Shown here one piece after another: positions 62,687 to 64,000 of a DNA stretch of 64,000 bases; positions within the stretch are counted from its first letter, which is position 1, and each line of letters starts with the position of its first letter. The DNA comes from Candidatus Latescibacterota bacterium (lineage in GTDB: Bacteria; Latescibacterota; UBA2968), in contig OZ241986.1 of assembly GCA_965204375.1 (NCBI GenBank), positions 3,392,001 to 3,456,000 of the forward strand, read 5' to 3'. A model generated the notes under the pieces. That model saw only the letters and a program-made list of their open reading frames with translations. It had not been told where the DNA came from and ran no database searches. Made by a program: the position numbers and the translations under genes.

Positions 62687-62714
62687 TGCGACACTTTCGG
62701 GATGCAGCCTCGTC
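62687..62714 (+). promoter_or_regulatory. Candidate autoregulatory ECF promoter
   Basis: TGCGACA-17 nt-CGTC, between the terminator and the ECF gene; CGTC is a common ECF -10 core. Confidence 0.4.
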
Positions 62715-62756
62715 TTTTATTAAAACACGCGTGGATTGATTTCTTGTGGAGTATTC

Positions 62757-64000
62757 GTGGAACAAATTGAAGACAGCGCGCTCATCGCCCGGATTTTAGA
62801 CGGCGACCGCAAGGCATTCACAGTTCTGGTGCATCGCTATTCGCGATACGTGTATGCCCAAATTGCCCGATCTGTGCGACTGGTCGATGACGTGGAAGAC
62901 CTGGCTCAAATCGTATTTATCAAAGCGTACGAAAATCTGCATCAGCTACGCAAACCCAACCGATTTAGATCCTGGTTACACAGCATCGTACGCAACGCCG
63001 TCAACTCCCATCATCGCCGTCGAGCCGTGCAATTGCGACTGGAAGAAACATTTTATCCAGAACCTGCAACACACGAGGAAGAAGAAATCAAACATGTCGT
63101 ACGAACCGCGCTTCACATCCTATCGGCTGAACATCGCCAGGTAATTGCCCATCACTATTTCAAAGGGTATTCCTACGCGGAAACAGCCGACCTCCTGAAC
63201 CTCACGGTAGAAACCGTGCGCGGGCGTCTGAGGCGTGCGCGTCTCAAATTGAAAGGAGAGTTGCACAAAATGTCGGATATTCAAACACAAACTATGGAAC
63301 TGGACCGCGCGGACATGGACGCGCTCAAAAAAGTAATCGGTTTTGTAAGCGACGATGAAAAACGCCCAATCTTACAGGGCGTATGTCTCGACACAGGCGG
63401 TCGCGCGACTGCAACCAATGGGCATATCATGATCATTCGCACCTTAAAAAGCCTCTCGGAACTCGCCGCACCCATTATCATCGGACCCTGGTCAGACATT
63501 CAACTCCCCGAACAGGCCACATTGAAAATTGCGGAAACAACCGCAGAAATCCAGAGCAACGGCACAACCCTTCAGGTATCCTTAATCGAAGGTCCTTATG
63601 TCAAATACGAGCAGGTCATCCCCCAAGAAGATCCCGCAATGCGAATTTCCATCTCCTCGACTCTTCTCGCACACGCACTGAACTTACTACAAGATTTCAT
63701 GGAAGCGCGGCACCCAGAATCAGATACCTGGCAATACCGCCCCCGGATAGATCTGCACCTCTCGCCGTTGACCCAGACCATAACCTTTCTCACATCCCGA
63801 GATACAGGATATGCCCGAGAAGACAATGGCAAATACCAATATCTCCTCGACGTGAAAGATGACGCCTCGCCAGGAGGCGTTGCAGATTGGATATTTCAGG
63901 TCCCACTCAATGCCAAATTTGAAACACCATCAGAAGACACACTCAGGTTGAACGGGTCTGAAGAACGACCCGTTGTACACCGCTTTGCCGTGAACTTCGC
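62757..64000 (+). CDS. ECF sigma factor fused to a beta-clamp (DnaN)-like C-terminal domain (3'-truncated by window edge; absent from the ORF track)
   Basis: Hand translation from GTG 62757 (GGAG RBS), no stop to 64000. Sigma2: 'GDRKAF..LVHRY...EDLAQIVFIKAY..L..LR...FRSWL..IVRN'. Sigma4: 'GYSYAETADLL...ETVRGRLRRAR'. Then 'FVSDDEKRPILQGV...ATNGH' and 'LIEGPYVKYEQVIP'. Confidence 0.88.
   Translation, partial: MEQIEDSALIARILDGDRKAFTVLVHRYSRYVYAQIARSVRLVDDVEDLAQIVFIKAYENLHQLRKPNRFRSWLHSIVRNAVNSHHRRRAVQLRLEETFYPEPATHEEEEIKHVVRTALHILSAEHRQVIAHHYFKGYSYAETADLLNLTVETVRGRLRRARLKLKGELHKMSDIQTQTMELDRADMDALKKVIGFVSDDEKRPILQGVCLDTGGRATATNGHIMIIRTLKSLSELAAPIIIGPWSDIQLPEQATLKIAETTAEIQSNGTTLQVSLIEGPYVKYEQVIPQEDPAMRISISSTLLAHALNLLQDFMEARHPESDTWQYRPRIDLHLSPLTQTITFLTSRDTGYAREDNGKYQYLLDVKDDASPGGVADWIFQVPLNAKFETPSEDTLRLNGSEERPVVHRFAVNF

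Follow-up and report, generated by a model that had tools for sequence, protein, structure and literature searches.

What is a sliding-clamp fold doing in a bacterial sigma factor? The question is raised by a gene at the end of a 64,000-nucleotide (nt) stretch of DNA (the window) from the genome of a Candidatus Latescibacterota bacterium (assembly GCA_965204375.1, contig OZ241986.1, positions 3,392,001-3,456,000 of the forward strand), the genome, here termed G000, being a single contig of 6.34 Mb (the window is G000:C1:3392001-3456000). A preliminary description of the window had noticed there a single uninterrupted frame, without a stop, in which an extracytoplasmic function (ECF) sigma factor continues into a module resembling DnaN, the DNA polymerase III beta clamp. 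Reading of the window sequence confirmed that this frame is open from the GTG codon at 62757 through the window end (62757..64000, continuing outside; plus strand, like all features below unless stated), and all the peptides quoted in that description were found in it. Extension of the contig, which had been recommended to obtain the full open reading frame (ORF), closed the frame, with its last codon 154 nt and its stop 157 nt beyond the window end (L001 1258-2658), giving a fusion protein, P0002, of 466 amino acids (aa). The GTG is preceded by a Shine-Dalgarno GGAG (62748..62751) at a distance of 5 nt, kept in most close relatives; an alternative start is TTG 62736, and the relatives begin at the GTG position with M/V-E-Q-I-E-D. 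Our best reading is that this protein is an ECF sigma factor with a new, clamp-derived type of fused C-terminal extension.

Residues 1-170 are an ECF (group 4) sigma factor with a sigma2-sigma4 core. Sigma region 2 spans residues 24-90 (62826..63026; PF04542 Sigma70_r2, 49.1 bits against a cut-off of 24) and region 4.2 spans residues 115-165 (63099..63251; PF08281 Sigma70_r4_2, 48 bits against 25.7). The sigma part also matched PF04545 (43.7 bits; cut-off 24.1), TIGR02937 (sigma70-ECF) matched the fusion at 90.3 bits (cut-off 42.9), and RpoE-type sigma chains of the PDB matched it at E = 8e-16. Neither Sigma70_r3 nor Sigma70_r1 was present among the Pfam families matching the fusion at E up to 1, the compact core without region 1.1 or region 3 being that of an ECF sigma factor, and no equivalog or subfamily model reached its cut-off among the 25 best of 112 NCBIfam matches (best, NF004113 with 85.4 bits against 208). 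The two regions are connected by a family-specific linker motif, HRRRAVQLRLEETF (residues 86-99; 63012..63053), with the pattern RR.VQ-h-x-Phi, where h and Phi stand for hydrophobic residues. Q92 and R87 of this motif are each found in 94% of the aligned family members, the AlphaFold2 model described below has the motif where a long helix (residues 67-99) ends, and among the 14 ECF-like ORFs of this genome the fusion alone contains it. The QLRLE of this linker is not claimed here as a clamp-binding motif, since it fits Q-L-x-L-F only in part. Another ECF-like ORF of G000 lies in the minus-strand frame o5682, which is open over 403 aa, roughly double what is usual; this may be a second sigma factor with an extension, or just a long stop-to-stop frame.

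The C-terminal part of the fusion consists of diverged DnaN domains II and III, domain I being absent. The Pfam clamp models remained below their cut-off of 27 on the fusion (DNA_pol3_beta_2, 15.9 bits; DNA_pol3_beta_3, 14.8 bits), with no match to the N-terminal clamp domain. The module aligned with the genome's own DnaN at 27% identity (residues 186-424; E = 5e-12), phrog_947, a 'DNA polymerase processivity factor', matched the fusion at E = 1.3e-18, and the family profile matched 55 distinct PDB clamp sequences with E values down to 8e-17, in an alignment spanning clamp residues ~126-290. An AlphaFold2 model, built from 46 family sequences, reached a mean predicted local distance difference test score (pLDDT) of 88.6 and a predicted template modelling score (pTM) of 0.63. 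With this model, beta clamps were top-ranked in Foldseek (E = 2e-14), and VIA-align placed its residues 176-463 on residues 124-366 of E. coli beta, that is on domains II and III, with Z values of 20-23.7 and a root-mean-square deviation of 2.2-2.6 A over ~230 residues, the top match being 7evp, a clamp complexed with a phage inhibitor. The module thereby divides into a domain II-like half, residues 176-295 (63282..63641; residue 176 lies on residue 124 of E. coli beta), which contains FVSDDEKRPILQGV, ATNGH and GPYVKYEQVIP, and a domain III-like half, residues 296-466 (63642..64000, continuing outside; residue 462-463 lies on residue 366), which has family-specific insertions and ends in LLMPIRL. 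The preliminary description, which had joined an ECF sigma factor in frame to a DnaN-derived module without domain I and had recommended HHpred or Pfam together with AlphaFold and Foldseek as a check, is borne out on both counts: the sigma domains are above the Pfam cut-offs, the clamp fold is recovered by structure where the Pfam clamp models stay sub-threshold, and the structural match covers clamp residues 124-366 only.

Besides the domain II and III fold, the fusion shares with DnaN the motifs R-P-x-L-x-G-V, A-T-D/N-G-H, Y-x-x-V-I-P and L-L-M-P-x-R-L. The true dnaN gene of this genome adjoins recF, ~1.2 Mb away, and is a 425-aa frame in which all three Pfam domains were found by family search, the C-terminal one above its cut-off. 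Unlike DnaN, the fusion lies outside the dnaN-recF locus, is joined to a sigma factor, has no domain I, shows one channel helix fewer in the model, and carries ~45 extra residues in its domain III-like half, the distance from the VIP motif to the C-terminus being 129-178 aa in the fusion family versus 112-143 aa in DnaN representatives. In these extra segments sit the family-specific conserved residues H319, P320, Y327, P329, G351, Y352 and W378, which are 91-100% conserved in the family and fall outside the DnaN motifs. A 12-aa deletion in domain II was also considered and dropped, as the ATDG-YxxY spacing of 58-68 aa in the family overlaps that of 58-87 aa in DnaN. The model contains three long helices (residues 184-194, 301-312 and 414-423) versus the four expected for two clamp domains, the expected second helix of the domain II-like half (residues 243-253) being, in the AlphaFold2 model only, a confident loop (pLDDT 93-94). 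These three helices hold 3, 0 and 1 Lys+Arg, respectively, and the module as a whole has an acidic surplus (29 K+R, 43 D+E). Because domain I is missing and one channel helix is missing in the model, the module is likely a non-ring pseudo-clamp that would not encircle DNA; the helix count, the few Lys and Arg and the net acidity weigh against a DNA ring. In a tree of 100 tips and 127 columns, the 33 fused members fell into one clade (support 0.77), which also holds two divergent three-domain clamps.

The peptide-binding groove of the clamp is hydrophobic and lies between domains II and III, and V247, P242, R152, R246, M362 and T172 of E. coli beta contact an inhibitor bound there (PMC3335792). 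The preliminary description had noted DnaN domain II motifs in this protein; at the level of sequence, motifs lining the groove are retained in the whole family, namely A-T-D/N-G-H, [FY]-[PV]-x-Y-x-x-V-x-P and L-L-M-P-x-R-L. By motif correspondence, for which the E. coli numbering was combined with the VIA-align ranges, four of the six groove residues are presumably identical in the fusion (V287, R203, M458 and T220), and two are changed (P242 to V and R246 to Q).

The fused architecture recurs in a small family. Of the 30 proteins returned by a word-index search with residues 176-466, 27 had sigma Pfam domains. An exhaustive HMMER search gave 189 matches with E values up to 0.001, in which the fusion family takes the top ~45 places, followed by true DnaN proteins matched at their residues ~125-270. 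In a profile search the family made up 37 clusters, all at E = 5e-22 or better and 30 of them containing sigma domains; DnaN appeared after a gap, from E = 3e-16. The family comprises ~37 clusters at 90% identity among 5.8 billion proteins. A Pfam scan of 42 cluster representatives distinguished 25 with sigma domains, 3 three-domain DnaN proteins and 14 short forms. Within the phylum, the fusion is present as a single copy in 65 of 168 genomes (each with a match of nearly full length at E = 1e-56 or better; open frames of 370-510 aa), all within four families of one Latescibacterota class, including 15 of the 21 genomes of the window's own genus; three genomes (G085, G107 and G130) retain remnants only. 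A pattern scan of GTDB representative genomes detected 23 loci from other assemblies, 22 of which are full length by tblastn (among them L027, with a frame break), while L030 is cut by a contig end. These loci are mostly labelled Latescibacterota, two are labelled Gemmatimonadota/Gemmatimonas and one uncultured bacterium, and the two with Gemmatimonadota-type labels belong to genomes of the same phylum set. Homologues had been expected to reveal whether the fusion is conserved, and a stop or frameshift between the two domains to speak against it: in all 23 loci the two parts were found in the same single frame. The same fused architecture is found in uncharacterised database entries such as OGG47072.1 / UniRef100_A0A1F6CDS8 (Candidatus Handelsmanbacteria) and NKB72738.1 (Candidatus Latescibacteria), sigma Pfam domains together with the module being present in both P0040 (472 aa) and P0044 (452 aa). 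Database entries of the family are named 'hypothetical protein', 'RNA polymerase sigma factor' (the only annotation of one member in a Handelsmanbacteria metagenome-assembled genome) or 'sigma-70 family RNA polymerase sigma factor', the clamp part being unannotated, and the family is confined to uncultured, partly sponge-associated Latescibacterota.

Both halves of the fusion are under purifying selection, the ratio of nonsynonymous to synonymous substitution rates (dN/dS) being 0.12-0.33 for either half in all 11 pairs. In two RNA libraries, relatives' contigs span the junction without an indel, and one near-identical DNA contig, possibly from the source organism, covers the whole stretch; RNA libraries can contain DNA and contigs give neither level nor ends, so these bridging contigs do not prove transcription.

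Several short 'standalone' forms of the module (261-306 aa) mostly start exactly at the junction Met. Two of them, P0039 and P0042, fall into 90% clusters together with longer proteins, P0188 (466 aa) and P0190 (362 aa), that have sigma region 4 in frame, and most of the others lie on contigs of 1-3 kb; we read the short forms as truncated gene calls and not as natural split forms. No match to P0042 turned up when genome and metagenome contigs were scanned, and P0035, among the standalone-like representatives, has a non-sigma N-terminus. Two other combinations were seen: P0058 has a two-domain clamp-like module, with the family RHP/GY/W motifs, behind a CxxC...CxxC zinc ribbon, and P0076 has a related clamp-like module in front of a SEC-C motif.

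The fusion gene is preceded by a predicted promoter of ECF type (62689..62716), composed of a -35-like element CGACACTTT (62689-62697), a 13-nt spacer and a -10-like element CGTCTT (62711-62716), which follows the terminator-like hairpin of the preceding PhyH gene and ends 40 nt before the start codon. The corresponding motif, [GA][CG][GA]A[CT]ACTTT-N13-C[GA]TC (GATC in one locus), stands before the fusion gene, at a distance of 30-118 nt, in all 22 loci read, also in clades of 35-45% protein identity, where other intergenic DNA differs. ECF-dependent promoters are laid out as a -35 element with AC and, after ~16 nt, a -10 element CGT. The conserved motif presumably functions as a promoter and, because it has this layout and stands upstream of the sigma factor's own gene, the fusion sigma is likely autoregulated. 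In its strict form, the motif has one site in the genome, that of the fusion gene, versus none in reversed-sequence controls. At 11-12 nt after the -10-like element lies a palindrome, CACGCGTG (62728..62735; no strand assigned), and, as read by eye, ACGCG[TC] (CGCG in L028 and L033) occurs at the same distance in near and distant clades; it may be an operator or the transcript start. Five genomes of the genus g10 have 1-3 motif sites each, with no recurrent target besides a site inside a DegT gene. This second exact match is found 3.4-4.2 kb upstream of the fusion in three of the five genomes (L028 2516-2541, minus strand, and the same site in G052 and G056), antisense inside a gene for a DegT-family aminotransferase, and may be a chance match kept by coding conservation. 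Rfam gave no match in L001, L002 or L004.

How might a pseudo-clamp serve a sigma factor? According to an ECF overview (PMC7826278), only one mode of ECF regulation is more common than C-terminal extensions (19 groups), their occurrence correlates with the absence of an anti-sigma factor, and ECFs that share a type of extension cluster together, suggesting a type-specific contact with the core; the extension of ECF41 contacts a linker motif and thereby controls binding to RNA polymerase (PMC8999054). Like ECF41 and ECF56 (SnoaL-like), ECF42 (TPR) and ECF238 (Cys-rich tail), the fusion combines a minimal sigma2-sigma4 core with a fused C-terminal domain of more than 50 aa, an extension-specific linker motif and a conserved promoter upstream of its own gene. 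In Pfam scans of 17 neighbours from L013, L025 and L028 no anti-sigma domain was found, small or novel anti-sigma factors being liable to escape; the families present in these three loci are PhyH, YbjQ, sulfatase, DHDPS (dihydrodipicolinate synthase), UMPH-1 nucleotidase, HU, transglutaminase-like, aminotransferase, ClpP and a second ECF sigma factor. Unlike in ECF41, ECF42 and ECF238, the extension of the fusion is a clamp fold of ~290 aa with no SnoaL-like, TPR or Cys-rich Pfam match. By analogy, the extension-regulated ECFs are the class that the fusion most likely works like.

On these grounds we give an even chance to the view that the pseudo-clamp is a built-in cis regulator of an autoregulated ECF sigma factor; the promoters in 22 of 22 loci, the linker motif in 1 of 14 ORFs, the scanned neighbours free of anti-sigma domains and the dN/dS values were counted in its favour. 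The pseudo-clamp, comprising DnaN domains II and III and tethered to sigma4 by ~8 residues, would work as a protein- or peptide-binding domain that replaces a separate anti-sigma factor, as the extensions of ECF41, ECF42 and ECF238 do. It would hold the sigma core inactive, or active, probably via the linker motif, until a ligand binds either to the retained groove between the clamp domains or to a new patch of conserved His, Tyr and Trp in the domain III-like half, and ligand binding would be relayed from the module to the sigma core. The modulation itself would be exerted through contact with the core or the linker, for which the linker motif, confined to the fusion among the 14 ECF-like ORFs, gives indirect support.

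A number of observations weigh against this cis-regulatory account. A pTM of 0.63 at a pLDDT of 88.6 corresponds to about one rigid body of 290 residues in 466, which suggests that the docking of the sigma domains on the module in the AlphaFold2 model is not a confident one; the contact between module and sigma core is putative, as is a ligand of the module. The linker motif fits a clamp-binding motif in part, with Q-h-x-Phi present and the fifth hydrophobic residue absent. With up to 2 mismatches, the promoter motif has 10 sites in the genome versus 6 in the controls, and no regulon is visible. The point about missing anti-sigma domains covers only the 17 neighbours of three representative loci. 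Finally, the gene neighbourhood differs between clades: in the near clade, a PhyH gene lies upstream and a convergent DHDPS-family gene downstream, and in the distant clades a gene for a pyrimidine 5'-nucleotidase lies nearby, convergent downstream, in eight of the nine loci that run past the gene (L025, L026, L028, L029 and L031-L034; not L027), with a convergent HU gene in six of the same nine.

A different role for the module is conceivable, namely that this sigma-borne clamp remnant still reads clamp-binding motifs and so wires transcription initiation to the replisome or to its attackers, either at replication-coupled promoters, as in T4 and Mu, or as a decoy sensing phage proteins or antibiotics; we find such wiring doubtful, at perhaps half the plausibility of cis regulation. 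Precedents for clamp-dependent transcription are T4 gp55/gp33 with gp45, where gp45 encircles DNA and tethers RNA polymerase (PMC7892883), and Mu MuC with the host beta clamp. As in these phage systems, a promoter-specificity or activator protein is here physically linked to a sliding-clamp fold. In T4 and Mu, however, short clamp-binding motifs make a non-covalent link to a complete ring that is loaded on DNA. In the fusion, which is encoded by a cellular genome, the sigma polypeptide itself includes a truncated clamp fold, and this probably does not encircle DNA.

In the first of these forms, the module would oligomerise, or dock on the replisome or the real beta clamp, and tie initiation to replication, nicks or DNA ends, as a covalent cellular counterpart of T4 gp55/gp33 plus gp45 or of Mu MuC plus beta clamp. 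Three two-domain protomers would make up a six-domain ring of the type of PCNA and T4 gp45. The module sits on a short tether (residues 171-180; pLDDT 70) from sigma4, which is located at the upstream promoter DNA, and R318, H319, P320 and other residues found only in this family follow the first helix of the domain III-like half, where the DnaN dimer interface lies, so that a new interface is possible there. The nucleotidase and HU genes near eight and six of the nine distant-clade loci would also suit such a coupling, but they are convergent and absent from the near clade. Domain I, half of the DnaN ring interface, is moreover absent, a loop takes the place of one channel helix and the other helices are poor in Lys and Arg, and altogether we judge clamp-coupled transcription to be improbable.

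We hold the second form, in which the module is a decoy sensor, to be just as improbable. As already put forward in the preliminary description, its groove would bind the clamp-binding motifs of replisome proteins, or phage or toxin proteins or natural products that target the clamp, whereupon the sigma factor would be switched on and the cell would report an attack on, or stress at, its replisome. Clamps are indeed targeted in nature, as seen in their complexes with a phage inhibitor (7evp) and with griselimycin-type compounds, and the groove motifs are kept family-wide; but two of the six groove residues differ (those at the positions of P242 and R246), no conserved defence or repair genes adjoin the fusion gene, and PADLOC assigned no family to P0002, giving just two weak matches, on a downstream ORF.

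The junction between the two halves (63255..63272), which was delimited from sequence and conservation, raises a further alternative, as it contains a candidate internal start, composed of GGAG (63255-63258) and the ATG of Met172 (63270-63272). Besides the fusion, this start would yield a free pseudo-clamp of 295 aa, whose targets in trans would be the fusion or other partners and whose role would resemble that of an anti-sigma factor or antagonist encoded alongside. Met172 is conserved in 82% of the aligned members, gene callers pick it as the start on truncated contigs, and GGAG precedes the junction ATG by 9-11 nt in 22 of 22 loci, in differing codon contexts (KGE, KEE, REE and RKE). GAG and AAG may, however, just be preferred codons. 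Synonymous sites in the GGAG show ordinary diversity in the near clade (rank 0.5-0.8) and only a somewhat reduced one in the second (rank 0.08-0.17), the spacing of 11 nt between GGAG and Met172 in this genome is long for a ribosome-binding site, and a naturally split gene, its halves separated by a stop codon, was not found among the phylum genomes and the cluster members. Two products from this gene thus appear unlikely to us.

That the fusion is a misassembly, or a recent and decaying accident without function, for which one might cite the 6 of 21 same-genus genomes that lack it, some of the phylum keeping remnants only, and the fragmentary gene calls on long contigs in some close relatives (P0012, P0192, P0193 and P0195), is excluded for practical purposes, because the one frame recurs at independent loci, in 65 genomes of four families, is bridged by contigs of independent assemblies and RNA libraries, has a conserved promoter and shows selective constraint in both halves.

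No description of a sigma-clamp fusion, nor anything relevant on ECF sigma factors of Latescibacteria, was found in the literature searched. The extensions named in the main texts of the ECF overviews (including PMC7826278 and PMC8999054) are SnoaL-like, TPR, Cys-rich, DUF1835 and transmembrane; clamp, DnaN and DNA polymerase do not occur in these main texts, the group-listing supplements lying outside the search, so that a brief earlier listing is possible. Within the same limits, these main texts agree with the preliminary description, to which no ECF group with a DnaN extension was known. Bacteria signal to a major extent through ECF sigma factors, and in a minority of these a fused C-terminal domain, in place of a separate anti-sigma factor, exerts the control. 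An extension derived from the clamp would be a new type among them, unexpected in its structure, and a rare reuse of the DnaN fold outside replication. If its groove still binds clamp-binding motifs, the fusion would connect the machinery of replication with the initiation of transcription in a cellular organism, a link so far known only for the phages T4 and Mu. As the hosts are uncultured, it would have to be studied by heterologous expression, which is feasible for a soluble protein of 466 aa with a defined promoter.

The coding sequence of the fusion is interrupted near the window end by a hairpin repeat of ~36 nt (63950..63986), an in-frame insert encoding RLNGSEERPVVH (residues 397-408) in a low-confidence loop of the AlphaFold2 model (pLDDT of 58 for residues 391-400). 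The insert is missing from most fusion orthologues, and in the RNA-library run X18 a contig skips the 37 nt of the repeat, with one other letter instead. The core, GAACNGGTC-N8-GACCNGTTGTA, has 17 copies in G000 versus none in the control, and the variable base of its stem is paired in every copy (G with C, or T with A). Six other copies were inspected, and all have stop codons in all frames close by; one copy sits just past the stop of another ECF sigma gene (L003), and in run X19 the depth is 478 over the repeat versus ~11 alongside.

Just beyond the window end, the convergent DHDPS-family gene (L001 2658-3108, minus strand) is broken in this genome: of the 295 aa that it encodes in relatives, residues 1-99 and 239-295 are matched in different frames and residues 100-238 are gone.

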